Part shown: in pieces, positions 6,467 through 22,637 of the stretch
Layout: each line of letters begins with the position of its first letter
Position numbering within the stretch: the stretch's first letter is position 1
Assembly: GCA_964615045.1 (NCBI GenBank)
Contig: CAZTOE010000005.1
Location: 1-41,837 of the forward strand
DNA from: an uncultured Spirochaetales bacterium
GTDB taxonomy: Bacteria > Myxococcota_A > UBA9160 > PR03
Direction of reading: 5' to 3'
DNA length: 41,837 nucleotides
The notes under the pieces: model-generated
Databases searched by the model: none
What the model was told of the DNA's origin: nothing
What the model saw: only the letters and a program-made list of their open reading frames with translations
Program-made: the position numbers and the translations under genes

Positions 6467-6467
6467 A

Positions 6468-7355
6468 CTACGCGTCTTTGACCAGGCGCCGATAGCTGTG
6501 CTTCTCGCCCGTGGTGCCGCGGTTGACGCCGACCATCACACCCGCCACGTCGGTTCCGGCCACGCGACCGAAAAGGCGGGGGCCGCCGGCCATCAGTCCG
6601 CCGTCGACGGTGATCGACTCGCCGGTCACAAACTCGGCTTCGTCGCTCGCGAGAAACAGCGCTGCGTTGGCGATGTCGCTGCCTTCGCCCGCCCGCGGGT
6701 ACGGCTGGAGCTCGAGCATGGTCTGCGTCGCCCGGTCTGGATCGCCCTGGTGCATGAGCGGCGTCAGGATCCCGCCCGGGCAGATCGCATTGACGCGAAT
6801 CCGGTGGGGTCCGAGCTCCACCGCCGTCGTCTGCGACAGATTCACCACCGCCGCCTTGGCGGCCGAGTAGGCTTGCGGTCCCGCCCCGCCGCAGAGTCCC
6901 GCCACCGACGCCGTGTTGATGATCGATCCACCGTCGCCCTGTGCGATCATCGTCCGCGCGCCGTGCTTGATGCCCAGAAAGACCCCTCGCGTCAGCACCG
7001 CAAAGGTGAAATCCCAGTGTTCGACTTCGATCTCCGTGATCGGGCCGAAGGCGCCGCCGAGTCCGGCGTTGTTGAACAGGACGTCGAGGCGGCCGAAGCG
7101 TTCCGTGGCCCGCCCGATCATGCGGGCGACGTCCTCCTCGGCCGCGACGTCGGTGCGCACGAAGTCGACCCGATCCCCGAGTCCATCGCGCGCCAGTGCG
7201 TCGACCAGCTCCTTGCCATTGGTCTCGTTCAGGTCGCCCACCACGACTCGCGCGCCCTCTTCGAGAAAGCGCAGCACGCTCGCCCGCCCCATTCCGCTGG
7301 CTCCGCCCGTGACGACGGCGACCTTTCCCGCGAGCCTTCCCGAGCCCTCTGCCAT
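6468..7355 (-). CDS. SDR family oxidoreductase
   Basis: TGGASGMG, NNAG and YSAAK catalytic motifs. Confidence 0.93.
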   Translation of the reverse strand: MAEGSGRLAGKVAVVTGGASGMGRASVLRFLEEGARVVVGDLNETNGKELVDALARDGLGDRVDFVRTDVAAEEDVARMIGRATERFGRLDVLFNNAGLGGAFGPITEIEVEHWDFTFAVLTRGVFLGIKHGARTMIAQGDGGSIINTASVAGLCGGAGPQAYSAAKAAVVNLSQTTAVELGPHRIRVNAICPGGILTPLMHQGDPDRATQTMLELQPYPRAGEGSDIANAALFLASDEAEFVTGESITVDGGLMAGGPRLFGRVAGTDVAGVMVGVNRGTTGEKHSYRRLVKDA

Positions 7356-7471
7356 TGCGGTTCCCTCCTCGCAGCGCCCCGCCGAGCGGGCCGCGAACGA
7401 CTCCCATCATACCCTGAAGCGGATGCCCCGCGCCGACGCCCTTCCCGCGCGACGCGAGCGGTGGGCGCCCG

Positions 7472-8083
7472 TCAGGCCAGGAGGCCCGCCTTCCGCAGAA
7501 GCCCCGCCACAGCGATCAGCGGAAGGCCGATGATGCCCGTGTAGTCGGAACCCTCGAGTTTCTCGAAAAGCGCGATCCCGGCATCCTCGATGCGATACGA
7601 CCCGGCGCAGTCGAGGGGCTGGTACCGGTCGACATAGCGCTGGGCGTCGCTTCGGCTGAAGGCGCGCATGGTGAGGCGCTGGCGGTCGACGGCCTCGAGC
7701 GGCTCGCCCGCGCCCGGGGGCGCGACCAAAACGCCGGTTACCAGCTCGTGGGTGCGCCCCGCGAGGCGCATCAGTTGCTCGACGGCGGCTTCCGCCGAGC
7801 CCGCTTTGCCGAGTACGAGTAGCCGGCCGGACGGCTCGGCGAGGACCCCGATCTGATCGGCGGCCAGGATCCACGCCGCGGGATGGGCAGGCCGAACGCT
7901 CTCCGCCTTGCCGCGGGCCAGCGCCAGGGTGATCGCCTCCGGGTTCTCTCCTGCCGCCGCCCGCTCGGCGAGATTTTCCTCGAAGGTCGGGGCGGCGGTC
8001 GCAAAGGGCAGGTCGAGGCGCGCCAGGAGCTCGGCCCGGTAACGGGAGGTCGAGGCCAGCACCAGCTGGGGAGCTTGGCTCAC
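7472..8083 (-). CDS. maf: Maf family nucleoside triphosphate pyrophosphatase (YceF-like signature)
   Basis: LVLASTSRYR, ADQ, LGK, CAGSYRIE and IIGLP motifs. Aromatic-Q-E signature rather than R-T-Q. Confidence 0.9.
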   Translation of the reverse strand: MSQAPQLVLASTSRYRAELLARLDLPFATAAPTFEENLAERAAAGENPEAITLALARGKAESVRPAHPAAWILAADQIGVLAEPSGRLLVLGKAGSAEAAVEQLMRLAGRTHELVTGVLVAPPGAGEPLEAVDRQRLTMRAFSRSDAQRYVDRYQPLDCAGSYRIEDAGIALFEKLEGSDYTGIIGLPLIAVAGLLRKAGLLA

Positions 8084-8856
8084 GCGAGGCCGAGAACGTC
8101 GAGCGCATTGCGCGTCGTGCGCGCGAAGACTTCGGCGGGCTCCAGACCCCAGAGGGTGGCGAGGGTCTCCGCCGTATGGCGCACCAGCGCGGGCTCGTTG
8201 CGCTCACCGCGGTGGGGCGTCGGCGCGAGGAAGGGGCTGTCGGTTTCGACGACCACGTCGTCCGGACCGAGTGCCCGCGCGGCCTCGCGAATCGGGTCAC
8301 AGCTCTTGTTCTTGAAGGTGATCTGTCCGGCGAAGCTCACCTTGAAACCCAAGGCCTTCCAGCCGAGGGCTTGCTCCACACCGTCGCTGAAGCAATGCGC
8401 GAAGCCCTTCCAACCGTCGGGACAGACCTGCCGGATCAGACGCTCGCAGATCGGGAAGGCATCGCGGCTGTGGATGCAGACGGGTCGGTCGAGGGCGCGG
8501 GCGAGTTCGAGTTGGCGCACGAAGGCCCGCTCCTGCACGGCGAGGGGCGCTTCGGCCTTGACGGTGTCGATTCCCATCTCCCCGACCAGAACCATTTCGG
8601 GTTCGCGGAGCAGGGCCTCGAGGTCGGCGAGCACGGCGTCGTCGAGGAGCGCAGCGTCGTAGGGATGCACGCCGACCGAAGCGTACACGCGTCCCGGGTA
8701 TCGCCGCGCCAACGCGAGGGCCTCGCGGCCTCCCGTGGGCAGCATCCCGATGCAGACCACGCGTTCGACGCCGGCGCCGCGCGCGCGCTCGAACATCGCG
8801 TCGCGGTCGGCGTCGTAGTTCTCAAAATTGACGTGGGCGTGGGTGTCGAAGAGCAT
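8080..8856 (-). CDS. tatD: TatD family hydrolase/DNase
   Basis: FDTHAH, GVHP, VGEMGID, IHSRDA and VETDSPFLAPTPHRGERNEP motifs. Alternative GTG start at 8877. Confidence 0.92.
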   Translation of the reverse strand: MLFDTHAHVNFENYDADRDAMFERARGAGVERVVCIGMLPTGGREALALARRYPGRVYASVGVHPYDAALLDDAVLADLEALLREPEMVLVGEMGIDTVKAEAPLAVQERAFVRQLELARALDRPVCIHSRDAFPICERLIRQVCPDGWKGFAHCFSDGVEQALGWKALGFKVSFAGQITFKNKSCDPIREAARALGPDDVVVETDSPFLAPTPHRGERNEPALVRHTAETLATLWGLEPAEVFARTTRNALDVLGLA

Positions 8857-8903
8857 CGTCTCGCTGTGAAGCCGCACCGGGAAGCGGTGCCAAGCTGAAG
8901 CGC

Positions 8904-10067
8904 CTACTCGGAGCGGATCGGATGCACCGTCGCGGGTTCGCGGGGTGCCGACCCGAGCGGCACCGTCTCCACGACCTCGAGGTCGAAGCCCTCGAGACCC
9001 ACGATGCGGCGAGGGCGATTCGTCAGCAGACGCATCTTGCGGACGCCGAGATCGAGCAGGATCTGGGCTCCGACGCCGTAGTCGCGCAACTGCGGAGCGT
9101 GATTGGCGGGCGTGGGCGCAGGCGCCGGGGTCGGTGCCCCTTCCGCCATGCGTTTCAGCACATCCCCCATGCGCTCACCGCCTCCGCGGTGCCCGATCAT
9201 CACGATGACACCGCGTCCCTCCTTCTCGATGGGTCCGGTCACGGCTTCGAGGGAGGGGCTGCGCCCGAGGTAGAAGTTCAGCAGGTCGACCGCCAGATTT
9301 GCAGATTGCATCCGCACGAGCACGGGGCTGCCGTCGGCGACGTCGCCTTTGACGAGCACGTTGTGCTCGGCGTCGTCCATCTCGCTGCGATAGATGATTC
9401 CCCGGTAACGCCCAAAGGTGTAGTCGAGGTCTATCTCGCAATAGCGCTTCACGAGTTTTTCTTTGGTGCGGCGGAACGCAATCAGGTCGGCGATCGACAC
9501 GATCTTGAGGCCGTGCTGTTCGGCGATGCGGTCGAGATCGGGGCGGCGCGCCATCGAGCCGTCCTCATTCAGGATCTCGCAGATCACTGCCGCCGGACCC
9601 AGACCCGCCAGCCGCGCCAGGTCGACGGAGCCCTCGGTGTGGCCCGCGCGAACCAGCACACCGCCCTCACGCGCCACGAGCGGAAACACGTGGCCCGGCC
9701 GCGCGAGATCCCGGGCGCCGCACTGGGGGTTGACCGCGGTCGCGATCGTGGTCGCGCGGTCGGCCGCGCTGATCCCGGTGGTGACCCCGCGCCGCGCCTC
9801 GATCGAGACCGTGAAAGCGGTCTCGTGGGCCGAGGTGTTGTCGCGCACCATCATCGGGAGATCGAGTTCCGCCGCGCGTTGTTCGGTGAGCGCCAGGCAG
9901 ATCAGGCCGCGACCATACCTGGCCATGAAGTTCACCCACTCGGGGGTAATCTTTTGGGCGGCGACGACCAGGTCGCCCTCGTTTTCTCGATCTTCGTCGT
10001 CGACGAGGATAATCGCGCGACCGCGACGAATCTCGTCGATAGCCTCGCTCACGCGGGAAAGCGGCAT
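8904..10067 (-). CDS. ribB: 3,4-dihydroxy-2-butanone-4-phosphate synthase fused to degenerate GTP cyclohydrolase II-like domain (RibBX-type)
   Basis: [24 protein letters not shown] and RAGHTE in the N-domain. The C-domain keeps [10 protein letters not shown] but has no Cys. Confidence 0.92.
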
Positions 10068-10143
10068 GCGAACTCCGTCCCCCTCCGGTCTCCGGTAGAG
10101 TAACCGAGCTGCCGCGCGTGTGCCGCGGCAGTCGCGCGCGGGC

Positions 10144-11337
10144 TCAGGGGTTCCGGAACAGCGCGCCCAAGCGAGCCATCCCGCGCTCAATCGCCTCTTC
10201 GGCCAAGTAGCTGTACGCCAAGCGCAGTTGATGGCGGCCTCGACTCCGGTCGGCGTAGAACGCATTCCCCGCCACGTAGGCGACCTGATGTTGTTCGACG
10301 GCGTGCGGCAGCAACGCCGCGGCGTCGAGTCCTTCCGGGAGCGTCACCCAGGTATAGAAGCCGCCTTCGGGACGGGTCCAGTGCGTGCCCCGCGGCATCT
10401 CGGCCGCGAGGCTGGCCAGCGTCGCATCGCGACGCGTCCGGTAGAGCGCGCTCGCCTCGGCAATCTGGCGATCGACCAAGCCCGTCGCGAGAAACTCGCG
10501 CGCGACCAGCTGGCCCAACGTCGGTGAACACTGATCTTGGCCCTGTTTGCAGAGCAGAAGCGCCTCGAGCGGGTCGGCGGGCGCCGTGATCCAGCCCAGG
10601 CGAACGCTCGGGCTCATGATCTTGGAAAGGGTATTGATGTGGATGACGTGGGTCGGATCGAGAGCGGCGAGCAGGGGCGGTACCGAGCCTTCGAAGCGGA
10701 GATCTTGATAGGCCCCGTCTTCGATGACCCACACATGGTAGTGTTGAGCGAGTTCGAGAATGCGCCGCCGCCGCGCTTCGCCGAGGGTGACGCCGGCGGG
10801 GTTCTGGAAGGTCGGAACCAGATAGATCAGCTTCGGGGTCGGTGCCGCGCCGCGCAGCACCTCTTCGAGGGCATCCGGGTCCATCCCGCCTTCATCGACC
10901 TCGACGGAAAGCAGGCGCGCCTCGTAGCTGCGGAAGACGTGGAGTGCGGCCAGGTACGACGGCGCGCCCACGACGACGGAATCGCCCGGGTCGAGAAAGG
11001 CCTTGGCGACGAGATCGAGAGCCGCGATGCCCCCCGTCGTGACGAGGATTTCGTCGGGCCGGGTGGGCCTCCCGTGACGCGCCATCCAGGTTCCCAACGT
11101 TTCGCGGAAGCCCACGATCCCCGCCGTCGGTCCGTAGCCGAGCGCGGCGCGCCCCGTCTTGTGCAACACTTCGGCGTACAGCGCTTCGATCTCTTCGAGG
11201 AGGAACGCCTCCGGCGCCGGCAATCCCCCGGCGAAGGACAGCACGTCGGGACGTTCCGCGAGTCGCAGGATCGAGGCGACGTCGCTGTGCCGCATGCCCT
11301 CGAGACGGGTCGCGAACGTCGGCCGCCTCGCGCTCAT
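10144..11337 (-). CDS. PLP-dependent class I/II aminotransferase (2-aminoadipate transaminase/MocR-like)
   Basis: LSFAGGLP, PTFQNPAG and TLSKIMSPSVRLGW motifs. ATG 11337 overlaps the rraA-like stop. Confidence 0.9.
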   Translation of the reverse strand: MSARRPTFATRLEGMRHSDVASILRLAERPDVLSFAGGLPAPEAFLLEEIEALYAEVLHKTGRAALGYGPTAGIVGFRETLGTWMARHGRPTRPDEILVTTGGIAALDLVAKAFLDPGDSVVVGAPSYLAALHVFRSYEARLLSVEVDEGGMDPDALEEVLRGAAPTPKLIYLVPTFQNPAGVTLGEARRRRILELAQHYHVWVIEDGAYQDLRFEGSVPPLLAALDPTHVIHINTLSKIMSPSVRLGWITAPADPLEALLLCKQGQDQCSPTLGQLVAREFLATGLVDRQIAEASALYRTRRDATLASLAAEMPRGTHWTRPEGGFYTWVTLPEGLDAAALLPHAVEQHQVAYVAGNAFYADRSRGRHQLRLAYSYLAEEAIERGMARLGALFRNP

Positions 11338-11993
11338 GGGAGGAAGCGAAGCGAACTCGCTTCGCCGCGCTGGACGTGGCGCGCGTGTTCTTCGAAGTTG
11401 GTGAGCTCGATGAGCGAGGTCCCCACTTCGATGCGGGCGCGGATGCGCGCTTCGGTCGCCTGGATCTCGCGGGCACGGGGGAGGGCGGCGAGGAGTTCGT
11501 CCTCGCTGGCGACGATCACGCCGTCGGCGTCGCCGAAGACCAGCTCGCCCGGGGCGACGCGCACGCCACCGCATTGCACCGGAACCTGGTGGTCTCCCCA
11601 GGCCATGGCGGTGCCGGCGCGGGGCGTCGCAAACCGCGCGTAAACCGGAAGCGACAACTTCCCAATCGCCGCAGTGTCGCGGCAGCCGCCATCGATCACG
11701 ATGCCGGCGAGCCCACGACGCACCGCCTCGGTGGCGAAGAGCTCGCCTGCGACGGCGAGACGGCTTCCCTGCGTATCGACCACCAGGACGTCTCCGGCCT
11801 CCGCCTCGCGTAGGCTCCGCAACACGGCCAGGAAGTCTTCACAGCAGCGCACCGTGTGAGCGCGGCCGAGCAACGACAACCCGGGGCGTACCGGGCGTAG
11901 CCCGGGATCGAGCACGCGGATCTGGCGATCGGCGTCGGCAAGCGAGGCCGTGTCGATCTCCGCAAGCGCTTCCCGCCATTCTTCCGGTTTCAT
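11334..11993 (-). CDS. RraA family protein (HMG aldolase/RraA-like)
   Basis: AVAGELFAT, GIVIDGGCRD and PGELVFGDADGVIV motifs. GGAGG SD before ATG 11993. Confidence 0.88.
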   Translation of the reverse strand: MKPEEWREALAEIDTASLADADRQIRVLDPGLRPVRPGLSLLGRAHTVRCCEDFLAVLRSLREAEAGDVLVVDTQGSRLAVAGELFATEAVRRGLAGIVIDGGCRDTAAIGKLSLPVYARFATPRAGTAMAWGDHQVPVQCGGVRVAPGELVFGDADGVIVASEDELLAALPRAREIQATEARIRARIEVGTSLIELTNFEEHARHVQRGEASSLRFLP

Positions 11994-12076
11994 CGCGACC
12001 TCCGCTCCGGTATCTTCGCACGATCCCGGCGCCGCGTCGGCACCCACCGGCAACACGCGGCGCCCTCGGAGGCCTC

Positions 12077-12469
12077 ATGCTAATCAAGCCCGACAAGGAA
12101 GCCATCGATATCGGCGTGATCGTGAGCGATATCGCCAAGAGCCTGGCCTTCTACCGAGATCTTCTCGGAATTCCCAAGACCCAGGAGCTCCCGACACCGC
12201 TGGGAACCATCCACCGCCTCGGGTATGGACAAACCGACCTCAAACTGGTGGTTCCCAACGAAACGCCTCCGGCTGGCCGGGTCGGTCTCGATCAGCAGCT
12301 CGGCTTCCGATACATCACCTTCCGCGTGAAGAACATCTCCGAGGTCTGTGATCGATTGCGGCGCGAAGGCATCGAGTTCACCATCCCGGAGAACGAGCTG
12401 TTGCCGGGCGTGCGCATCGCGATGGTGAAAGATCCCGACGGCAATATCGTCGAGTTCGTCCAGCGCTAA
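12077..12469 (+). CDS. VOC/glyoxalase family protein
   Basis: SLAFYRDLLG and KDPDGNIVEF motifs. GGAGG SD. Confidence 0.88.
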   Translation: MLIKPDKEAIDIGVIVSDIAKSLAFYRDLLGIPKTQELPTPLGTIHRLGYGQTDLKLVVPNETPPAGRVGLDQQLGFRYITFRVKNISEVCDRLRREGIEFTIPENELLPGVRIAMVKDPDGNIVEFVQR

Positions 12470-13299
12470 GGCGTTCCCACCCCCGGGCGCGCCAAGAACT
12501 CCCCGATCACCCGCTGAACCTCCTCGCGATGGGTGCGGTTCGGGAAGTGGGGCCCTCCCTCCACGATGTGGAGCTGCGCGCCGGGGATCAGCGCCGCCAC
12601 GCGTTCGGTCATCTCCCGGGTCGGCCACCGGTCTTCGGAACCGCCCAGCACGAGCGTGGGGCAGCGGATCTCGCGGCAGCGCTCCGACCAGTCATCTCTC
12701 GAGTAGGTCTCGTCGAGCAGCGCCAGCAGTGACGCCACGCTGTGTTGGCGCAGGGGTGCGGTCAGCTCGTCATAGCGTTGCGGTCGCGCCTTGAGACGGG
12801 CGAGCGCCGCGTCGCCCATGCGGCGCCGGACGTTGGCGTCGAAGTACCCGGCAAAATCGCCCCTCTCGATCAGGGGTCGATGGGCGGCGTAGTACTCCCT
12901 TTCCTGGGCCCGCGGCGCGAAGGGCGGGCCGCTGATGGAAATCACCCCACGCACGCGCCGCGGTGCGTGGACCGCTGCCCAGAGCGCCAGCGCGCCTCCC
13001 ATCGAAACGCCGCCCCAGATCGCCTGCTCGAGCCCCAGGTGATCGAGCCAGGCGAGCAGGTCGCCGCACTTGCGGGCGTACGTGTAGGCCTCGGGGCGCT
13101 CGAACTTGGCGGAGCGGCCGTGGCCGCGGACGTCGGGATAGAGGCAGCGGAGCGCACCGAGAAAGGGCGCGAGGTCTTCGGTGACGTACGAGGAATCTTC
13201 GACGGAGCCGCCGTGGATCCACACCACGGCGGGCGCGTCTGGGCGTCCGGCCTCACGCCAATAGACCGGAACTCCTTCAGCCACGGTGCAGATCGGCAC
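12466..13299 (-). CDS. Alpha/beta fold hydrolase
   Basis: IHGG, DVRGHGRS, GVSMGG nucleophile elbow and C-terminal His (GPHFP). Confidence 0.9.
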   Translation of the reverse strand: MPICTVAEGVPVYWREAGRPDAPAVVWIHGGSVEDSSYVTEDLAPFLGALRCLYPDVRGHGRSAKFERPEAYTYARKCGDLLAWLDHLGLEQAIWGGVSMGGALALWAAVHAPRRVRGVISISGPPFAPRAQEREYYAAHRPLIERGDFAGYFDANVRRRMGDAALARLKARPQRYDELTAPLRQHSVASLLALLDETYSRDDWSERCREIRCPTLVLGGSEDRWPTREMTERVAALIPGAQLHIVEGGPHFPNRTHREEVQRVIGEFLARPGVGTP

Positions 13300-13307
13300 G
13301 GCGGCCG

Positions 13308-13313
13308 ACGATA
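13308..13313 (-). promoter_or_regulatory. Putative -10 box (TATCGT) 8 nt before SD-less GTG start
   Basis: TANNNT hexamer at the same spacing as in several other SD-less genes in this window. Confidence 0.45.
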
Positions 13314-13373
13314 GCGCCCCGGCGGCGGAGGAGTCGGGCTAGACTCTCATCCGCCTTCCAGCCAGGAGTTTCC

Positions 13374-14198
13374 ATGAGCGCCGAACGAGCCATCGACACC
13401 GGAACCGATCACCTGCTCGCCAGCGTCCGGTCCGGCGTGGCGACGCTGGTGATGAACCGCCCCGAGCGCCGCAACGCCTTCTCGAGCGAAATGCAGACCG
13501 GTCTCTCGCGAGCCCTCCACGAAGCGGAGTCCGCTTCGGACGTGCGCTGCGTGGTCCTCACCGGGGCCGGCGGCGCCTTCTGCGCGGGGGGCGACGTCAA
13601 GGAGTTCGCCAAGGGCGCCGCTACCGGGGGCGGCAGTTTCGACGAACGAGTCCACCAGCAGCGCCTCAACCAACGCGCCACGTCCGGGGCGCTGCGCGCC
13701 ATGCCCAAGCCCACCATCGCGGCCCTTCCCGGCCCCGCCGCCGGCGCGGGGCTCTCGCTGGCGCTGGCCTGTGACCTGCGCGTCGCCGCCGAGAACGCGA
13801 TTCTCACCACAGCCTTCGCCAAGGTCGGCTTTAGCGGCGACTACGGCGGCGCCTGGTTCCTGACGCGCCTCGTCGGCGAGGCCCGGGCCAAGGAGCTCTA
13901 TCTGCTGTCCGAACGCATCGACACGGAGACCGCCGAGCGGCTCGGCATCGTCAACCGAGTGTTCCCCGCGGAGACCTTCGCGAAGGAGGTCGAAGCGCTG
14001 GCCCTGTCGATCGCGTCGGGCCCGAGCATTGCGTACCGCTACATGAAAGAGAACATCAACCGCGCGGGTGGCGAGGAGCTCTTCTCCTATATGGACCGCG
14101 AGGTCACCTATCACCTGCACTGCGGGACCACCGAGGATCACCTCGAGGCCTCGAAGGCCTTCGTCGAGAAACGCTCCCCCGTCTTCCGAGGACGTTGA
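13374..14198 (+). CDS. Enoyl-CoA hydratase/isomerase family protein
   Basis: NRPERRNA, FCAGGD and AAGAGLSLALACDLR motifs; typical end PVFRGR. AGGAG SD. Confidence 0.92.
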   Translation: MSAERAIDTGTDHLLASVRSGVATLVMNRPERRNAFSSEMQTGLSRALHEAESASDVRCVVLTGAGGAFCAGGDVKEFAKGAATGGGSFDERVHQQRLNQRATSGALRAMPKPTIAALPGPAAGAGLSLALACDLRVAAENAILTTAFAKVGFSGDYGGAWFLTRLVGEARAKELYLLSERIDTETAERLGIVNRVFPAETFAKEVEALALSIASGPSIAYRYMKENINRAGGEELFSYMDREVTYHLHCGTTEDHLEASKAFVEKRSPVFRGR

Positions 14199-14201
14199 AC
14201 C

Positions 14202-15149
14202 ATGCCCAGTACGCGCCCGCCCGTGGACTACATCGAGCGCACCCGCGAACAGTATGCAGCCCTCGGCTACCCCCCCTACCAATGGGTGCACAGCGAGACG
14301 CCGCCGCCGTGGGCGCCGCTGCGCAAGCCCCTCTCCGAAGCGCGTCTCGGCCTCGTCGCTTCGGGAGGGATCTATGTCGAGGGGCAGGTCGCGTTTCACT
14401 ACAAGGACGACACGTCGTTCCGCATCGTCGACACGGCGACCCCCACCGATCGACTTCGCGCCACGCACTTCGCCTACGACCTCGCCGACGCGCGCAGTGA
14501 TCCGAATGTGGTATTTCCCCTCGATCCGCTCCGCGAGCTGGTGAAGGACGGAGTCCTCGGCGAGCTGTCGCCCCGCGCCTACACGTTCATGGGGGGCATT
14601 TATTCGTCGCGCAAAGTCCGCGAACTGCTCGCCCCCGAGATCGCGCGGCGCCTGGTCGAGGATCAGGTCGACCTCGTCCTGCTCGTTCCGGTCTGACCGG
14701 TGTGTCATCAGTCCGTGGGACTGATCGCACGCGAGATCGAGGGTCGGGGAATTCCCACCCTCTCGATGAGCAGCGCCTGGTCGATCACCGCGGCAGTCAA
14801 TCCGCCGCGCGCGCTCTATCTCGACTTTCCCCTCGGTCATACCACCGGCAAGCCCGCCGACCGTGCCTTGCAGCGCGCCATCGTGTCGGACGCCTTGCGC
14901 GGCTTCGAGCGTTTTCGAGAGCCCGGGAGCATCGAGAGGCTGCCCTATGAGTGGGCGGCGGACGACGCCTGGAAGGACCGCGTGATGCGCCCGCGTGCCG
15001 GCGAAGCAGCGGACGACGCGGATGCCTACGAAGACGACCGCGTGGAGCGGTTCGACACGCCACAGTATCAGTGCGAGCGCGATCGCGAGCTCGCCGAGGC
15101 GGCGCTCGCCGAGGGCCGCTGCGAAACCTGCGTCTGGGTCGAACCGTAG
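14202..15149 (+). CDS. Selenoprotein: glycine/sarcosine/betaine/D-proline reductase selenoprotein B family (PrdB/GrdB-like), 315 aa, Sec165 at TGA 14694-14696
   Basis: ORFs 14202-14696 and 14700-15149 are in frame. Read through, they give VDLVLLVPV-U-PVCHQSVGLIAREIE, the UxxC site of this family. N-half has KPLSEARLGLVASGG and DPNVVFPLD. SECIS-like hairpin follows. Confidence 0.88.
14700..14730 (+). promoter_or_regulatory. Putative bacterial SECIS element
   Basis: GTGTG-TC-ATCAGTCC-GTG-GGACTGAT-CGCAC: perfect 8-bp upper stem plus lower stem. The loop G lies 18 nt after the UGA. Confidence 0.8.
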
Positions 15150-15225
15150 CGGGTTTTGGTCCGAGCCAGAGCGGTCTCGCGGCGACCGCCTCGCCGCTCC
15201 GCTACCGGTCCACGCGGCGGTGCCG

Positions 15226-15723
15226 ATGCCTCGCAAGATCTACATCACGCCCGAGGGCGCCCAGAAACTCCGCGAAGAACTCGAGCGGCTTTGGAACGTC
15301 GAGCGCCGCGCGGTGACGCGCGAGGTCGCAGCCGCAGCCGCCCAGGGCGACCGCTCGGAGAACGCGGAGTACATCTATGGCAAGAAGCGGCTTCGCGAGA
15401 TCGACCGGCGGCTGCACTTTCTCCGCAAACGCCTGGACGAAGTGGTCGTGGTGAAGAGCGGCGAGGTCGGGGATCGCGAGCGCGTCTTCTTCGGTGCCTG
15501 GGTGACGCTCGAGGACGATGCTGGCGAGCGCCGCGGCTATCGGCTCGTCGGACCCGACGAGATCGACGCCGAACGGGGCTACATCAGCATTGATTCGCCA
15601 CTGGGCCGTGCCCTGGTCGGCAAGCGGTGCGGCGACGAGGTAGGCGTCGAGCGACCCTCCGGCCCCGCCAGCTACACGGTGCTCGAGGTCGCCTACGAGG
15701 GCGTTGCGACGCAGGAGCCTTGA
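15226..15723 (+). CDS. greB: Transcription elongation factor GreB
   Basis: YITPEG, AAAQGDRSENAEYIYGKKRLREIDRR and ISIDSPLGRAL motifs. Confidence 0.95.
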   Translation: MPRKIYITPEGAQKLREELERLWNVERRAVTREVAAAAAQGDRSENAEYIYGKKRLREIDRRLHFLRKRLDEVVVVKSGEVGDRERVFFGAWVTLEDDAGERRGYRLVGPDEIDAERGYISIDSPLGRALVGKRCGDEVGVERPSGPASYTVLEVAYEGVATQEP

Positions 15724-17672
15724 TGATGGGCGCGCAACCGCGGGACCTTCCGCTCGACTTGTCGCTCGATTCGCCCCTCGATCTAGACGGGGCGCTCGGC
15801 CGCTTTGGGCACGCCTGCTTCCGGGCGGGACAGCGCGAGGCGATCGAGACGCTTCTCGAGATCGGTCGGCTTCTCCTCGTGGCGCCCACGGGGGGTGGAA
15901 AGAGCCTCACATATCAGCTCCCGGCGAGCCTATTGCCGGGGACCACGCTGGTCGTCTCGCCGCTGATCGCGCTCATGCACGATCAGGTCGAGTCCCTGCA
16001 CCGGTGCGGCATCGCGGCGACTTATCTCGCGTCGACGCTCGAGGGGGAGGCGATGCGCGGGCGCATGCGCGGGGTCGCGCGGGGGGAGTATGACCTCGTC
16101 TACGTCGCGCCCGAACGGCTGGCGGCGGCGGGCTTTCGCAGCCTGCTCCGCGATCTCGACTGCCCGCTCGTCGCGGTGGACGAGGCGCATTGCATCAGTG
16201 AGTGGGGGCACGACTTCCGGCCCGAATACGGGGCGATCGGGGCGCTGCTCGAAGCGCTGCCGAAGGCCCGGATATTGGCCTGTACAGCCACCGCGACCCC
16301 CATCGTGCGCGATGAGATCCTCGCGAAGCTGGGTCTCCCGCCCGATACACCCCAGCGGATCCACGGCTTTGCCCGGCCCAACCTCGCACTGCGCGCCCGC
16401 TCGGTCGGGAGCGCGCGGGAGCGCACCGCAGCGGTGGATGACGCCCTGGCCGAGGCGCTTGGGCAACCCGGGGCGGGACGCGGGACGGCGATCCTGTACT
16501 CCCCGACCCGTAGGGGCGCAGAGGAACAGGCGGCCCGCCTCGCGAAACAGGGCTGGCGCGTGGCGTATTACCACGCGGGTTGCAGCCCCGAGTCCCGCGA
16601 GGCCAGTCAGCGCGATTTCATCGAGGGGAAGCTCGAGATCGTGGTGGCGACCAACGCATTTGGGATGGGAATCGATCGGGCCGATGTGCGGGCGGTGGTG
16701 CACCTCGGTCCACCGGGGTCCCTGGAGGCCTACTACCAGGAGGTCGGACGAGCCGGACGCGATGGTGCGCCGGCCCTCGGGTTGATGCTGCACGCGGCGG
16801 GTGATTTTCCGCTGCGCCGCAGGCTGCTCGAGCGCGGCGGCGACACGGCGCCGCCCGGCGCCGAGATTGTGGAACACAAGTGGAATCTGTTCCTCGAGTT
16901 GATGCGCTGGGCGGATGGCGGGAGCTGTCGGCACGACGCCGTCCTGCGCTACTTCGGCGACGAGGAGGAGACCATCTCCGGATGCGGCGTGTGCGATGTC
17001 TGCGTCCGCCAGCGCGAGGGGTCACAGGGCGCGCAGGATCCGGAGTACGTGACCTTGGTGGTGCGCAAGGCGCTTTCGGGTGTGGCGCGGGTCCAGGGAC
17101 GCTTCGGCTTGGGCGCCGTCGTCGCGTTGCTGCGCGGCGACGGCGACAAGCGCCTCGAGCGCGCGGGACTCGATCGCGTGTCGACCCACGGCGTGCTTGC
17201 CGAGTATCCGGCTGCGTGGCTCCAGCGGCTCCTGCTGCGCCTGGTGACCGCGGGTTGGGTGGGGTTTGCCGGAGGCGATCGGCCCGTGGTGACTCTCACG
17301 GCCGCCGGTTTCGGGGTGATGCGCGGCGAACTCCCCGCCCGGGTCGAGCTCCCGTCGCGGGGAGCCGGTCGGACCCGGGGTCCGGCCTCCCGCCCGGGTC
17401 CCGAGACCGGAAAGCGTCGCACCGTGGTGGCAGAGCTCGACGCGGCCGGCCGGGCCCTGTTTGACGCGCTCCGCGCCTGGCGTCTCGAGACGTCGCGACG
17501 GGAAGGTGTGCCGCCCTACGTGGTTGCGAGCGACCGCACGCTGCGCGATGTGGCATTGCTCCAGCCGCGGGACGCCGAGACCTTGCTGCTCTGCCACGGG
17601 ATGGGACCCCGCAAGGCCGAGCGCTACGGCGAAGCCATGCTCCAGGCGCTGGCCCGAACGCAAGGTTCCTGA
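15723..17672 (+). CDS. recQ: ATP-dependent DNA helicase RecQ family (with RQC and HRDC domains)
   Basis: PTGGGKSLTYQLP, VDEAHCISEWGHDFRPEY, ATNAFGMGID, YYQEVGRAGRDG, Zn-binding Cys residues and C-terminal VPPYVV HRDC. Confidence 0.93.
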   Translation: MMGAQPRDLPLDLSLDSPLDLDGALGRFGHACFRAGQREAIETLLEIGRLLLVAPTGGGKSLTYQLPASLLPGTTLVVSPLIALMHDQVESLHRCGIAATYLASTLEGEAMRGRMRGVARGEYDLVYVAPERLAAAGFRSLLRDLDCPLVAVDEAHCISEWGHDFRPEYGAIGALLEALPKARILACTATATPIVRDEILAKLGLPPDTPQRIHGFARPNLALRARSVGSARERTAAVDDALAEALGQPGAGRGTAILYSPTRRGAEEQAARLAKQGWRVAYYHAGCSPESREASQRDFIEGKLEIVVATNAFGMGIDRADVRAVVHLGPPGSLEAYYQEVGRAGRDGAPALGLMLHAAGDFPLRRRLLERGGDTAPPGAEIVEHKWNLFLELMRWADGGSCRHDAVLRYFGDEEETISGCGVCDVCVRQREGSQGAQDPEYVTLVVRKALSGVARVQGRFGLGAVVALLRGDGDKRLERAGLDRVSTHGVLAEYPAAWLQRLLLRLVTAGWVGFAGGDRPVVTLTAAGFGVMRGELPARVELPSRGAGRTRGPASRPGPETGKRRTVVAELDAAGRALFDALRAWRLETSRREGVPPYVVASDRTLRDVALLQPRDAETLLLCHGMGPRKAERYGEAMLQALARTQGS

Positions 17673-17706
17673 CCGGGCCGCCGTCAGCAGACCGTTCGAC
17701 GGGACC

Positions 17707-18186
17707 TCAGTCGCGCACGAGACCGAGCCGCTGGTGCCACTCCGCGATCGACTCTTCGGGGTACTCCTCGAAGCGCCGATCGCGCGGCCCGAACTCGACC
17801 GGAACCCACGGAGCTCGCGAGCCGAGCATCAGGTGGGTGCGCTCGGGGGCGGCCGGGAGCTCGGTGTCGATTGCCGATGCGAAAGGATGAATCAGGTCGG
17901 GCCAACGCGGATCCCACACCCAGAGCGCGCTGCCGCAGAGGCCGCAGAAGTTCCGTTCAGCCGGGCTCGACCGAGTGCCGTCGCCGATCCGCGCGCGATA
18001 GACGCGCAACGCCTTGCGGTCACCCACCTGAAGACTCGACGCATCGCCGCCGAGGTTGATCGCGTAGCCGCCGCCCCCGGCGGTCTTGCGACAGATCGAG
18101 CAGTAGCAGAGGTTAAAAGGGTACGGGTGAGCGGATTCCAGCGAGAAGCGCACGGCCCCACAATGACAAGAGCCTTCGAGAAGCAT
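17707..18186 (-). CDS. GFA/CENP-V family Zn protein (glutathione-dependent formaldehyde-activating-like)
   Basis: C-terminal part of the 686-aa ORF: MLLEGSCHCGAV...CYCSICRK...RNFCGLCGS. Confidence 0.9.
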   Translation of the reverse strand: MLLEGSCHCGAVRFSLESAHPYPFNLCYCSICRKTAGGGGYAINLGGDASSLQVGDRKALRVYRARIGDGTRSSPAERNFCGLCGSALWVWDPRWPDLIHPFASAIDTELPAAPERTHLMLGSRAPWVPVEFGPRDRRFEEYPEESIAEWHQRLGLVRD

Positions 18187-18782
18187 CAGGAACCCTCCCG
18201 CCGATCGATCAGTATTTCGCCCTCGCCCGGCAGCCGCCGGCAGTCGGGGAACACGCGGCCCGAGCGCGCGGTGGCGAGCATCGGCTGAAACTCGATCTCG
18301 TGGCCGCTTCCCTGATACGGCACGACGACATCCACGCAATACCCGTCGCGGTGTTCCAGCGAGACCTGTACCGCCGGGTGCGGCGAACGCTCCCCCTCGA
18401 TTTCGAAGCGCACGTCGGACACCACGGCAATCGCCTTGTACCCCTCGCGGTCGAGGGTGTCGCGCAACATGCCCTCGAGCAGCTCGACGATCTCCCGGGA
18501 GCGTTTGCCCTCGGCGTCTGGCACCTCGCTCAGGTGTTGGATTTCGCCGGCGTCCGTGAGGCCCGAGGCAAAGGGGAGGAACTCGCCGTGGCGGGCCAGG
18601 AGCAACTGTGCCAACCCCATGCTTTCGTTCAGGAGCAATTCCGCTTCGAGCTTGGCCCGCAACAGCGGGTGATCGGGGAGCGCGGGCGGCTCCGCGGGGG
18701 CACCGCCACGCATCCGCGTGGAATAGGCCCACAGCAATAGGCCGAGCGCCAGAAACAGAACGGTGTAGCGACCCATCGCCAT
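18186..18782 (-). CDS. Hypothetical protein with N-terminal membrane anchor/signal
   Basis: N-terminal hydrophobic stretch followed by a soluble domain. Fits tightly between its operon neighbours. Confidence 0.7.
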   Translation of the reverse strand: MAMGRYTVLFLALGLLLWAYSTRMRGGAPAEPPALPDHPLLRAKLEAELLLNESMGLAQLLLARHGEFLPFASGLTDAGEIQHLSEVPDAEGKRSREIVELLEGMLRDTLDREGYKAIAVVSDVRFEIEGERSPHPAVQVSLEHRDGYCVDVVVPYQGSGHEIEFQPMLATARSGRVFPDCRRLPGEGEILIDRREGS

Positions 18783-18791
18783 GGAACCCGC

Positions 18792-20009
18792 CTAGAATTT
18801 GTCGAGTTCGAGGCCCAACACGTGACGCCCCAGTTGTTCGCTCACCCGATCCTGGTGGGCGTTGATGTGGAGCGGCATGGCCTGAAAGTCGCGATAGCGG
18901 CGCTCGAAGCTCGAACCCTCGCGCAGCCCGTTGCCCCCCAGCACGCGCAGGATCAGCCGCATCGCCTCGTCGCAGTGCTGCAACGCGGCCGTGCTGTGGC
19001 CCATCTGGCGCAGATAGTCCGCCTCGCTGGGCAGCGTCGTGCAACCGATGCGGCGGTCGACCTCTTCGCACCCGGTGTACACCGACGCCCGCGCGGCCTG
19101 CACCAACCACGCGGCGCGGCCGAGGTTGAGGTGGATGGTAGGCCGTTCCACCATCTTCACGCCCAGAATACCCCGCCGCGTTTGAATGTCCGCGCACGCC
19201 TCTTCGAGGGCCGCCTGCGCCACGCCTACCGCCTGCGCGCCGAGCCACAGGTCCGACAGCCCGACCCAGTCTTCGCGATAGCGGGCATGGAGCACCGGAA
19301 ACGACGCGCGTCGAAACTGCTCGGCTCGCTGGGCACCGAACCACGGCGCCCAGCGATGGGCGGGAATTTCCGCCTCCTCGTAGTGGATCGTGTCGGTCGC
19401 CGAGGCCCGCAGGCTCATGCCGTCCCAGGTGGGCTCGACCCGCACCCCCGGGCTGTCGCGACGCACGATCGTAAAGCGCAGATCGGGCGGGTCGCCCACC
19501 CTGCCGTCGCCGCGATCCATCCCGAAGGCGACACCGATCCATTCGCCGTAGCGGGCCCCCGAGCCGAAGTGAGCTTCGCCGTGCAGGGCGATGCGGTCGC
19601 CGTCCAGGCGCCCCAAGACCCGCGTGCCCGCGCCACCGGGGAAGCACACCCACTCGTGGGCTTCCACGATCGAACGCAGCAGCTCGGCGTGCTCCGGCCC
19701 CAACGCTCCGCAATAGAGGTGGAAGACGCAGAGATGGTTCCACAGGCACCACGCCGTCGACCCACAAGCCGTCGCCACGGCTTCGAGCTCGCGGGCGATT
19801 TGCCGGATCGATTCCTCGATCCCGCCGATCTCCCGCGCCGCGGAGAGCGCCATCAGCGGTGACGCCTTGATGGCGCGGATCACCTCAGGTGCCACGTCGC
19901 GGCTGCGGTCTGCCTCCGCCGCCTGCTCGGCGATCGCCGGGAGAAGGTCGCGCGCGCAGAGCTTGCCGGCCTCTGGGTACAAGTATCCGCGCAGCGGGCC
20001 TTCGCTCAA
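18792..20009 (-). CDS. Acyl-CoA dehydrogenase-fold flavin-dependent monooxygenase (HsaA/DszC-like)
   Basis: ACGSTAWC, HFGSG, TWDGMSLRASAT and FERRYRD motifs. TTG start at 20009 overlaps the nitroreductase stop. Confidence 0.82.
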   Translation of the reverse strand: MSEGPLRGYLYPEAGKLCARDLLPAIAEQAAEADRSRDVAPEVIRAIKASPLMALSAAREIGGIEESIRQIARELEAVATACGSTAWCLWNHLCVFHLYCGALGPEHAELLRSIVEAHEWVCFPGGAGTRVLGRLDGDRIALHGEAHFGSGARYGEWIGVAFGMDRGDGRVGDPPDLRFTIVRRDSPGVRVEPTWDGMSLRASATDTIHYEEAEIPAHRWAPWFGAQRAEQFRRASFPVLHARYREDWVGLSDLWLGAQAVGVAQAALEEACADIQTRRGILGVKMVERPTIHLNLGRAAWLVQAARASVYTGCEEVDRRIGCTTLPSEADYLRQMGHSTAALQHCDEAMRLILRVLGGNGLREGSSFERRYRDFQAMPLHINAHQDRVSEQLGRHVLGLELDKF

Positions 20010-20659
20010 CCCTCCTCCCCGGCGGTGGGAAAGGCGGCGCCGTAGCGGTCGAGGAACGCGATGTCGCGCACCGGGCGGCGCGAGAGCTTTTTCGGAAAGG
20101 GCTTTTGCGGGTAGCCCACCGCGAGCGTCGCGCACACCGCGATGTCCTCGGGGATGTCGAGCAGCTTCCTCAGGGCGGGTTCTTCGTGACACATGAGAGT
20201 GGTCAGGGCCGAACCGAGTCCTTCGTTGCGGCAGGCGAGCAGTAGGTTCTGCACGGCCGGGTAGATCGATGCGCCGCCCACCACCGAGAGCCGCCCGAGC
20301 TGGTGATCGGTCGGGTGGACATCGGAGAGATCGGCGCACACTACGATCAGCGCCGGGATCTCGTCCAGGTGGCGGGCGAAGTGATCCGCCGCGCCGAGCA
20401 TGTTGCGGCTTCCCTCCGCCCGGATTTGGCCGCCGCCGAGACCCTTCACATAGGTCTCCCAGTAGGGCAGGTAGAGGTCTCGAAGCGCCCGTTTTTTGTC
20501 GCGGTCGCGCACCACCAGGAAGCGCACCGGCTGGCGGTTGCCCCCGCTCGGCGCAAAGCGCGCCGCCGAGAGGACCCGCGTCAGCACCTCGTCGGGGATC
20601 GGGTCGGGTCGGTAGTAGCGACACGTTCCGTTGCTCTGAATGAGTTCTTGAAGTTCCAT
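20006..20659 (-). CDS. Nitroreductase family protein
   Basis: CRYYRPDPIP, APSGGNRQPVRF, QNLLLACRNEGLGS and LAVGYP motifs. Confidence 0.92.
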   Translation of the reverse strand: MELQELIQSNGTCRYYRPDPIPDEVLTRVLSAARFAPSGGNRQPVRFLVVRDRDKKRALRDLYLPYWETYVKGLGGGQIRAEGSRNMLGAADHFARHLDEIPALIVVCADLSDVHPTDHQLGRLSVVGGASIYPAVQNLLLACRNEGLGSALTTLMCHEEPALRKLLDIPEDIAVCATLAVGYPQKPFPKKLSRRPVRDIAFLDRYGAAFPTAGEEG

Positions 20660-20675
20660 CGATGCTCCGTCGCGT

Positions 20676-21293
20676 TCAGGGCGTCCGCTGCAGCGGCTCG
20701 CCGCTCTCGGCGGCTTGCTGGATGCCCGCATCGAGCTCCAAGCCCAACCCATCCGCCAGCCGCGTCAGATAGTTGAAGATCCCCACGATATGGGCGACCT
20801 CGAGGCAGGCGCGATCGTCGAAGCCCATCTCGCGCAGCGGCTGCCAATCGCCCTCCACCATCCGCGTCGGTTGGGCGGAGAGCTTCTCGGCGACCTCCAG
20901 GAGCGCGCGCTCCCGCTCGCCGAGCCCGGCCACCTCGCGCCAGCGGCGCTCCGCGATCGCCCGCGAGAGTCCTCGCGATCCGCCCTCGACACGCAGAAAC
21001 TCTGCGTGGGACTGCGTTCAGTAGAAGCAATCTTGCGCGGCGGCTGCGACCCCGGCGACCATCTCCCGCTCGCGCCGGCTGAGCGTTCGCTCGGGCGCGA
21101 ACATGATCGCGTTGTAGAGCTGCATGAAGGGCGGGCCGATCTCGGGGTGACTGATGATCAAGCGCCCCATGGCCGGCACGAACCCGAAGGAGTACGGCGA
21201 TCCCGCCATGGCCGGACGGAGCTGCGCCTCGCTCGGAAGCCGAACCCACGCTCCCGGCTCGCCCTTCGCGACGCGGTTGCTGTGTACGCTCAT
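20676..21293 (-). CDS. Selenoprotein: AhpD/carboxymuconolactone-decarboxylase-like peroxidase-related protein, 205 aa, Sec92 at TGA 21020-21018
   Basis: The upstream half ends LSRREREMVAGVAAAAQDCFY-TGA and the frame continues TQSHAEFLR...NYLTRLADGLG. This gives the exact AhpD motif E-x11-C-x2-(U)-x3-H. SECIS-like hairpin follows. Confidence 0.88.
20990..21008 (-). promoter_or_regulatory. Putative bacterial SECIS element
   Basis: Minus strand CACGCAGA-GTT-TCTGCGTG: perfect 8-bp stem. The loop G lies 17 nt after the UGA. Confidence 0.78.
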
Positions 21294-21410
21294 CGGATGC
21301 CTCCCCGCGAGCGGCAGGCTCGCGCGACAATCGGAGGCCTGCCAGGGTACACTTCCCGGCCGCCGGCGCTCGACTGCGCCGCACAGCCAGCCGACGTCAA
21401 GGGAGAACCG

Positions 21411-22634
21411 ATGAGTCAAGCCATGAGTCAAGGCATTCTGAGCGGGCTTCGGGTGATCGATATGGCCACCTATATCTTCGGGCCGGCCAGCACCACGGTG
21501 ATGTCCGATTTTGGGGCCGAAGTCGTCAAGATCGAGAGCCCCGGGATCGGGGATCCCTACCGCTACACGCACCTGATGCCGCCCTTCGAACCCAACGAGC
21601 TCGACTACATGTTCCAGCTCGACAATCGCAACAAGCGAGGAATCGTGCTCGACGTGCGGGTCGATGCCGCCCGCGAGGCGTTGCTCGAGCTCGTGCGCGG
21701 CACCGACGTCTTCGTCACCAACTTTCCACCCCGGGTGCTCGAGAAGCTCCGGATTCGCTACGAGGATCTGGCGCCCCAGAACGACCGCTTGATCTACGCC
21801 CAGGTGACCGGTTACGGCGAGAACGGTGATGAGATCGACAAGCCCGGTTTTGACGCGACGGCCTACTGGGCGCGCACCGGTCTCATGGACGGCGTGCGCC
21901 CCCCGGACGCCGAACCCGCGCTCTCCGCTCCCGGGATGGGGGACCATCCCAGCGCCATGGCGCTCTTCGGCGGCATCATGCTGGCGCTCTACAAACGCGA
22001 GAAGACGGGCAAGGGGTCCAAGGTTTCGAGTTCCCTGATGGCGAACGGCGCCTGGGCGAACGGCTGCGCGATCGCGTCGGTACTCGCCGGCTGCCCGCAG
22101 ATCCGCGGCGTCCGGCGAGAAGCTCCGCCCAACGCGCTGATCAACCAATATCGGACCCGCGACGACCGTTTCTTCCTGCTCGTCGTCATCACGCCCGACA
22201 AGGACTGGGTGCGCTTCGCGCGAGCCATCGGTCGCCCCGAGCTACCCGAGGATCCACGCTTCGCGACCAAGGAGGCGCGCAGCGAGAACGCCCGCGCGTT
22301 GTTCGAGATCCTCGACGACGTTTTCAGCTCCCGGGACTTTGCGGACTGGAAGAAGATCCTGGACGACGCCCAGATTACCTTTGGCGTCGTCGAACGCACC
22401 GACGAGACGCCCCACGACAACCAGATGCGCGAGAACGATCTGTTCGTCGAGGTGTCGCACGAGGAGATGAGCAAGGTCCAGGTCGTGAACAGCCCGATCT
22501 GGCTCGGCGGGGAGTCCAAACGGCCCAGCACCCGTGCCCCCAAGCTGGGCGAACACACCGAAGAGGTGCTGGCCGAGATCGGCTACGACGCGGACCGCAT
22601 CCGGGCGCTGCGCGAAGCGGGCGGCCTGGGATAA
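21411..22634 (+). CDS. CaiB/BaiF family (class III) CoA-transferase
   Basis: LSGLRVID, GAEVVKIE, NRNKRGI and APKLGEHT motifs. GGAG SD before ATG 21411. Confidence 0.93.
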   Translation: MSQAMSQGILSGLRVIDMATYIFGPASTTVMSDFGAEVVKIESPGIGDPYRYTHLMPPFEPNELDYMFQLDNRNKRGIVLDVRVDAAREALLELVRGTDVFVTNFPPRVLEKLRIRYEDLAPQNDRLIYAQVTGYGENGDEIDKPGFDATAYWARTGLMDGVRPPDAEPALSAPGMGDHPSAMALFGGIMLALYKREKTGKGSKVSSSLMANGAWANGCAIASVLAGCPQIRGVRREAPPNALINQYRTRDDRFFLLVVITPDKDWVRFARAIGRPELPEDPRFATKEARSENARALFEILDDVFSSRDFADWKKILDDAQITFGVVERTDETPHDNQMRENDLFVEVSHEEMSKVQVVNSPIWLGGESKRPSTRAPKLGEHTEEVLAEIGYDADRIRALREAGGLG

Positions 22635-22637
22635 CAC

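Follow-up and report, generated by a model that had tools for sequence, protein, structure and literature searches.

A PrdB-like selenoprotein with a conserved C-terminal CxxC pair and no reductase partner genes in an uncultured bacterium

Introduction

This report concerns a gene for a PrdB-like selenoprotein on contig CAZTOE010000005.1 of an uncultured Spirochaetales bacterium (assembly GCA_964615045.1; GTDB lineage Myxococcota_A; UBA9160; PR03); the whole 41,837-nucleotide stretch that was analysed is called the window. The gene is a member of a known family of environmental selenoproteins that is widespread, uncharacterised and misnamed. With odds a little better than even (about 0.55), its product works on its own as a selenoenzyme, belongs to the GRDB (selenoprotein B) superfamily with PrdB as its closest member, is not a proline reductase subunit, and recycles its redox centre through a C-terminal CxxC pair. 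The points that are new are the antiquity and spread of this CxxC tail, its possible complementarity with cysteines of the protein core, the expansion of paralogues, and fusions with AMP-ligases.

Since 2005, selenoproteome surveys (Zhang et al. 2005, 2008; PMC1088965, PMC2398784) have counted proteins with the pfam07355 domain and a UxxC motif, where U is selenocysteine (Sec), under the name 'proline reductase PrdB'. Thus, the preliminary description of the window overstated its case in proposing an undescribed system. In the parts of these surveys that deal with the family, there are 42 Sec forms and 1 Cys form from the Sargasso Sea (PMC1088965) and 235 Sec and 110 Cys forms in the GOS (Global Ocean Sampling) data (PMC2398784). 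The same parts rank the family among the most abundant marine selenoproteins, in oxic samples, and also list PrdB in Anaeromyxobacter and Geobacter genomes. Recent reviews, in their passages on the family, still place it under D-proline reductase. Judged by domain and motif, the survey set probably corresponds to the subfamily found in the window. Literature searches found no paper on the orphan status of these proteins or on their CxxC tail.

Results

Selenocysteine decoding of an in-frame UGA

The features of the selenoprotein gene are as follows.

14202..15149, + strand: PrdB-like selenoprotein gene, 315 amino acids, one TGA read through
14694..14705, + strand: codons of the redox centre U165-P-V-C168, with TGA 14694-14696 as Sec codon
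14701..14731, + strand: hairpin resembling a selenocysteine insertion sequence (SECIS), with 5-bp and 8-bp stems and a GUG loop
14985..15047, + strand: variable acidic linker, residues 262-282, which differs in length and sequence among aligned relatives; predicted local distance difference test (pLDDT) 64-67
15048..15083, + strand: family-wide tail motif R283 ... P-Q-Y-Q290 ... D294, from alignments of 23 and 68 sequences
15072-15074, + strand: codon of the non-conserved C291, inside the tail motif
15120..15131, + strand: C-terminal CxxC, C307-E-T-C310, conserved in orthologues and in public loci

Comparison with relatives shows that the UGA at 14694-14696 is decoded as Sec, with the aid of the hairpin downstream. 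Read-through gives a protein of 315 residues with the motif VPV-U165-PV-C168-HQS, and its Sec and Cys positions are five in total (U165, C168, C291, C307 and C310). Counts of public loci here and below refer to the best 80 of at least 589 related loci in public genomes. At the aligned Sec-site codon there are 75 TGA and 4 Cys codons, and one row is truncated without a recognisable site. The hairpin starts 7 nt after the TGA and has a fold energy of -34.9 kcal/mol (z -2.3). Across 73 distinct sequences its pairing is kept in 90.4% of cells, against 31-38% when the partners are slid, and compensatory changes occur at 4 pairs, with those at pairs 15-31, 18-28 and 19-27 largely synonymous. No Rfam family was found in the window at its gathering score, the hairpin included.

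If the TGA were a real stop, the region would hold two small genes or a pseudogene. Database annotation looks at first like this, with many entries that are N-terminal halves of 173-215 residues and others that are C-terminal halves, as is produced by gene callers that split the gene. Against a real stop, the reading frame and the coding signal in GC content at third codon positions carry on across the TGA, protein conservation among the public loci runs past it to the end of the frame, and the Cys forms are colinear with the Sec protein of the window. The covarying hairpin adds to this, as does the decoding machinery of the genome itself, which has a SelB (318 bits against a cut-off of 242) and a tRNA-Sec (contig C213). 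We consider a real stop to have next to no chance of being correct. Nor is the TGA an assembly error, because contigs from four metagenome runs cover it unchanged. The sole difference from the window across the four runs is a C>T at position 14786 in the run X4 contig, which falls at a third codon position.

Family assignment

The best NCBIfam match is the PrdB profile TIGR04483, which aligns over 222 of its 238 positions with residues 33-253 and scores 168.9 bits against an equivalog cut-off of 300. The Pfam family GRDB (PF07355) is matched with 49.9 bits (gathering score 22). There is a marginal pass for TIGR01918, 'various selenoprotein B', at 67.0 bits against 65.45, and the GrdB equivalog TIGR01917 reaches 66.8 bits against a cut-off of 602.2. 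A profile search matched 3348 cluster representatives at E<=1e-3, 1422 at 1e-10 and 206 at 1e-30, and many of these matches are halves cut at the UGA.

In the tree, the window protein stands in a set of 17 rows (with L052-L060, L018 and L061). Three further rows of this set belong either to the same order or to a record with the label Myxococcota, and the 13 others are labelled Pseudomonadales, Gammaproteobacteria and so on, with one Acidobacteriota. These mixed labels suggest horizontal transfer of the gene.

Several database homologues depart from the usual form. Three full-length proteins (P0003, P0011 and P0018) have Thr at the Sec/Cys position (V-T-P-V-C-H-Q), which would abolish selenol or thiol chemistry there. 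In P0167 the PrdB-like domain is putatively fused to an HTH_3 DNA-binding domain, and in P0241 to a Ser/Thr protein kinase domain. P0240 has, beside its GRDB match, a faint match below the cut-off to Pfam UGSC (PF24696, E 9e-4), and two UxxC selenoprotein families that are both abundant in the sea may thus be remotely related.

Orphan status and paralogues

The window gene is a true orphan. Its own genome (G000; 91.7% complete, 567 contigs) has no match to PF09338, the PrdA/GrdE family, or to PF04723, the GrdA family. PF09338 is likewise absent from the four other genomes that hold an orthologue, namely G001, G027 (2 contigs), G033 and G040. Across the 41 genomes of the order, G000 included, PF09338 is found in one (G005) and PrdB-like genes in 22. 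The best G000 match to the PrdC profile TIGR04481 lies on a different contig and reaches 152 bits against a cut-off of 490. The same-family relative G005 provides a positive control for the PF09338 and PF04723 searches, since grdE (PF09338, 458 bits), a GrdB-type gene and grdA (PF04723, 144 bits, one TGA) adjoin each other at G005:C182:2651-5671. This is the sole cluster of the Stickland reductase type among the 41 genomes.

Thus, the orphan status that was read from the window alone stands at the level of the genome, where a search for prdA and grdE had been proposed as a check. The observation that no thioredoxin gene is near also holds, as there is none on the contig and there are five matches elsewhere in G000.

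An alternative is that the protein is the PrdB of a genuine D-proline reductase, or its counterpart in a glycine or betaine reductase, with partners encoded in an unassembled part of the genome. The rank of PrdB as best NCBIfam match over 222 of 238 profile positions and the incompleteness of a genome in 567 contigs would allow this. However, the score is far below the equivalog cut-off, the partner families are missing as described from G000 and its orthologue-holding relatives, the same searches did detect a real grd cluster in G005, and the protein has a family-specific C-terminal extension of 60 residues. We regard this alternative as very improbable and close to refuted.

PrdB-like genes can be present in several copies. 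Of the 47 places listed in the 41 genomes, 44 contain a single TGA, one contains three and the other two lack a TGA. G000 holds four paralogues with TGA at the same site (motifs UPVCHQS, UPLDHQT, UPVCHQT and UPDCCRS), and their tails differ and their neighbourhoods are unrelated. As many as 6 PrdB-like matches occur in one relative (G001) and 5 in another (G027). The three further paralogues of G000, which correspond to loci L002-L004 and L132-L134, are as follows.

C259:2971-3738, + strand: PrdB-like paralogue, one in-frame TGA
C13:26396-27190, - strand: PrdB-like paralogue, one in-frame TGA
C101:8206-8919, + strand: PrdB-like paralogue, one in-frame TGA

Their neighbours encode Zn-ADH/epoxide hydrolase, NAPRTase/UPRTase and EthD/SUI1. 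The paralogue on C259 reads U-P-L-D-H-Q, and is therefore a UxxD form without the resolving Cys.

The C-terminal tail and its CxxC

The PrdB profile ends near residue 253, and the window protein continues for about 60 residues. This extension has an acidic stretch (8 D/E within residues 262-283), followed by QYQ-C291 and then GR-C307-ETC310-VW, and the translated sequence agrees here with the acidic linker and the letters QYQC...GRCETCVW given in the preliminary description. Two alignments, one of 23 and one of 68 sequences, show no variation at W257, R283, Q290 and D294, and residues 281-315 have pLDDT values of 89-97 in the AlphaFold2 (AF2) model. Because of these invariant residues and the confidence of the model, the C-terminal 60 residues are taken as part of the fold, and not as a loose appendage.

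Conservation differs among the tail cysteines. C291, previously singled out as a third Cys, is found in only 5 of the 76 public-locus rows where the motif was found, and it loses its standing as a feature. The terminal CxxC is kept well beyond chance, as had been anticipated. It is present in 5/5 orthologues of the order and in 58/75 Sec forms of the public loci, with labels of Pseudomonadota, Myxococcota, Actinomycetota, Binatota, Acidobacteriota and Thermodesulfobacteriota. There are clade-specific forms (GC-P/A-TC-V-W/F-L, CLVCAGIDY and CPVCRS), and locus L095 is a CxxC form whose tail motif reads SQYQ. On a tree of 85 rows built without the tail columns, CxxC is found in 62 rows and requires 4 changes, compared with a mean of 20.2 for shuffled labels. 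Since so few changes suffice and the deepest ingroup lineages carry CxxC, the tree shows it to be an old feature, under purifying selection, that was lost a few times.

Of 45 tail-less rows, 40 have an additional Cys in the core (position 129, 173 or 188), compared with 24 of 62 tail-bearing rows, and the window protein has no Cys at any of these positions. This pattern is suggestive of complementarity between the tail CxxC and a core Cys, and it follows clades.

Predicted fold

The AF2 model has a mean pLDDT of 93.1 and a predicted template modelling score (pTM) of 0.92. It shows Sec165 and Cys168 at a helix N-terminus in a predicted Rossmann-like alpha/beta core, with Sec165 right after strand 158-162 and at the start of helix 166-181. 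Redox-active CxxC and UxxC pairs usually sit at the N-terminus of a helix that follows a strand. The terminal CxxC borders a short strand, 310-312.

A search of solved structures by sequence, with the protein and with a profile, found no relative, and Foldseek against the PDB gave nothing at E<=1e-3. A wide search with VIA-align returned generic Rossmann-like folds alone (LacI/periplasmic binding proteins and SDRs, Z<=9), which represent a common arrangement. An alignment of 68 sequences has 33 columns without variation, among them H89, D69/D70, Y134/S135, H169/Q170 and R203. That so many polar and aromatic positions are invariant speaks for a defined pocket that takes a small molecule rather than for a generic protein-disulfide reductase.

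Layout of the locus

The genes that flank the selenoprotein gene are listed below; RecQ is given as its longest open reading frame (ORF).

12466..13299, - strand: divergent alpha/beta-hydrolase gene (PF00561, 78.5 bits), with a common 74-nt upstream region
13374..14198, + strand: enoyl-CoA hydratase/isomerase (ECH) gene (PF00378, 189.2 bits)
15226-15723, + strand: GreB gene, directly downstream of the selenoprotein gene
15627-17672, + strand: RecQ gene, after greB

The gene order given earlier is confirmed, with the selenoprotein gene 3 nt after the ECH stop and greB-recQ behind it. The ECH gene ends with TGA, which is followed by ACC and then by the ATG of the selenoprotein at 14202 on the same strand, and contigs of runs X1, X2 and X3 bridge this adjacency. 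By its sequence the upstream product is a predicted crotonase-fold enoyl-CoA hydratase/isomerase. Its best NCBIfam rows all fall below their cut-offs, and its substrate is not assignable because no equivalog is reached.

About 97 nt at the end of greB (15627-15723) also lie in the longest RecQ ORF, so that recQ probably starts further downstream than this ORF does. Beyond recQ, the block from 17707 to 23642 holds genes for a GFA-domain protein, an ACAD-like protein, a nitroreductase, a CoA-transferase of family III and a luciferase-like monooxygenase. GFA and nitroreductase genes directly adjoin the PrdB-like gene in a genome of the same genus, and greB-recQ in the window therefore looks like an insertion or rearrangement. 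The gene-by-gene Pfam scan covered 5816-23642, and the remainder of the window was covered by whole-genome family searches. No promoter or terminator patterns were seen within 12300-15800, and none of the 14 sequencing runs listed is an RNA run.

Hydratase linkage and acyl-CoA neighbours

The preliminary description linked the selenoprotein to the hydratase, and recommended that the neighbourhoods of homologues be compared. The 3-nt adjacency is real and is kept in the same-genus genome, where the ECH is 78% identical, and the ECH-PrdB-like pair is confined to these two genomes. Wider conservation is not found, with a same-strand upstream ECH at 1/80 public loci (public locus L061 and the same-genus genome are counted as one). 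Thus, the ECH partnership is an arrangement at the level of the genus and not a family trait. Three orthologues of the order have the following neighbours.

G033: divergent thiolase-SDR-acyl-CoA ligase; two convergent CoA-transferases
G027: FKBP upstream; SCP-x-type thiolase and luciferase-like monooxygenase downstream
G040: MlaA

At the 80 public loci, the window-type gene is often monocistronic or divergently placed. The commonest neighbour families are CoA-transferase III (12), NUDIX (12, confined to Acidimicrobiia), ACAD (10), ECH (10) and luciferase-like monooxygenase (9), and no family is present at more than 12 of the loci. Of the 156 genes that are immediate neighbours, 26 (17%) are of acyl-CoA type, versus 38 of 389 genes at positions 2-4 (10%), and 24 of the 80 loci have one as an immediate neighbour. 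There is therefore a weak family-wide excess of such neighbours. The genome of the window holds about 39 ECH and about 26 CoA-transferase III genes, so that adjacency by chance is not rare.

Three database proteins (P0138, P0139 and P0140) consist of an AMP-binding (adenylate-forming) enzyme fused to a Cys-form PrdB-like domain. The ligase is complete in P0139 (805 aa) and partial in P0138 and P0140. These fusions belong to another paralogue subfamily, of the type NCPVCHQ...GVPTNRSQR, and a search of the subfamily to which the window protein belongs found no longer, fused proteins, which is weak evidence.

Discussion

A possible mechanism and its rivals

C-terminal Cys tails recycle the active-site sulfide or selenosulfide in MsrA, in the R1 protein of class Ia ribonucleotide reductase and in mammalian thioredoxin reductase. 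By analogy, the window protein may be a thioredoxin-dependent stand-alone selenoreductase in which the tail CxxC is the recycling dithiol, and we favour this slightly over the sum of other possibilities. Sec165 would attack an electrophilic atom of the substrate, and Cys168 would resolve the adduct to give a selenenylsulfide. The dithiol of C307 and C310 would then re-reduce the selenenylsulfide by exchange, and the general thioredoxin system, for which there are candidate genes elsewhere in the genome, would finally reduce the tail.

Several points weigh against this proposal. The anatomy alone is observed, and from it we infer the exchange between tail and UxxC together with every chemical step. 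There are 17 of 75 Sec forms without CxxC, and the tail is therefore not essential for Sec chemistry. CxxC is absent from all 4 Cys loci and from all 22 database proteins in which Cys or Thr takes the place of Sec. However, this absence is not counted as evidence, because there are only 4 independent contrasts between Sec/Cys state and CxxC tail (sign test p = 1). The relations of the tail to Sec and to core Cys both follow clades. There is also no conserved partner gene at the 80 public loci, no fused domain in the subfamily and no solved relative, and the strongest clue to the substrate is the neighbour enrichment of 17% against 10%. Finally, a metal knuckle would be just as compatible with a CxxC that lies beside a beta strand.

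This last point leads to the main rival, in which the tail CxxC is a metal site, either a structural Zn knuckle or a four-ligand Se/S centre formed together with Sec165 and Cys168. The protein has exactly two pairs with x-x spacing (U165/C168 and C307/C310) and one non-conserved Cys. In addition, the tail pair is confidently modelled beside strand 310-312 and not on a floppy end, and conserved hydrophobic residues follow it (CxxC-V/I-W/F-L). However, tail-less Sec forms retain every core invariant, so that a shared metal centre would be dispensable, and their tendency to gain a core Cys is a better fit to thiol chemistry. Moreover, the tail has no conserved His or Cys that could serve as a partner. 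On balance, a metal site seems an unlikely explanation that still deserves to be kept in mind. Another proposal, to which we give a similarly low standing, follows the preliminary description in placing the enzyme in the metabolism of acyl-CoA or acyl-adenylates. Here a thioester-activated substrate, made or used by the neighbouring hydratase, would be attacked by Sec at its alpha or beta carbon. The retention of the 3-nt gap within the genus would suit this proposal, as would the thiolase, SDR, acyl-CoA ligase, family III CoA-transferase, SCP-x-type thiolase and luciferase-like monooxygenase genes beside orthologues, the 24 public loci with an acyl-CoA-type neighbour and the three AMP-binding fusions. 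Yet an upstream ECH on the same strand is confined to a single public locus and no neighbour family exceeds 12 loci, and the genome of the window is rich in ECH and CoA-transferase III genes. Furthermore, the enrichment is small and is drawn from loci that are kin, the fusions belong to a different paralogue subfamily, and the three other G000 paralogues have unrelated neighbours.

More speculative still is the idea that the stand-alone PrdB-like proteins form a separate class of selenoenzyme that performs Stickland-type reductive C-X cleavage without a pyruvoyl partner. The alpha-carbon would be activated by CoA or adenylate, or the substrate would bear a good leaving group, for example a betaine-type ammonium, and the CxxC would replace the GrdA/PrdC relay. 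If this is true, such chemistry would have left traces in the AMP-ligase fusions of the sister subfamily and in the CoA-enzyme genes scattered among the neighbours.

Whichever chemistry applies, an abundant selenoprotein family of the oceans is named after an enzyme of anaerobic clostridia that the organisms with these genes are unable to assemble. There is a systematic annotation error here, in that gene calls break at the UGA and the label 'D-proline reductase' is propagated. The orphan status, the several paralogous subfamilies (up to six copies per genome) and the ancient second Cys pair, which belongs to the largest Sec-containing subfamily, make this a testable problem in enzymology.

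Comparison with known systems

The window protein shares with GrdB, GrdF and GrdH, the selenoprotein B subunits, membership of one superfamily (PF07355 and TIGR01918) and Sec at an equivalent site. However, it aligns only to the C-terminal half of these proteins of about 430 residues, it scores far below their equivalog cut-offs, and GrdA, GrdE and other Grd partners are lacking.

The likeness is closer to PrdB of Clostridium sticklandii and Clostridioides difficile, which has the UxxC Sec at the same place and a core of similar size. In contrast to PrdB, there are about 30 extra residues at the N-terminus and about 60 at the C-terminus, the latter with the invariant R283, Q290 and D294 and the CxxC. 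The genome has neither the PrdA pyruvoyl proprotein nor PrdC, and the score is below the PrdB equivalog cut-off. In addition, holders of the window family are labelled Gammaproteobacteria, Myxococcota, Acidimicrobiia and so on, and are not Stickland fermenters.

The resemblance to MsrA, class Ia ribonucleotide reductase and thioredoxin reductase is one of functional analogy alone, with no relationship in sequence or fold, in that the window protein also has a core redox pair and a C-terminal Cys pair behind a variable linker. With the 'PrdB' family of the marine surveys, by comparison, the agreement is one of domain and motif, and the identity of the two is probable. Although the survey papers, in the parts that treat the family, name it proline reductase without discussing the missing partners or the CxxC tail, the pfam07355 domain and the UxxC motif are the same, and Sec forms outnumber Cys forms in both sets (here 75 versus 4).

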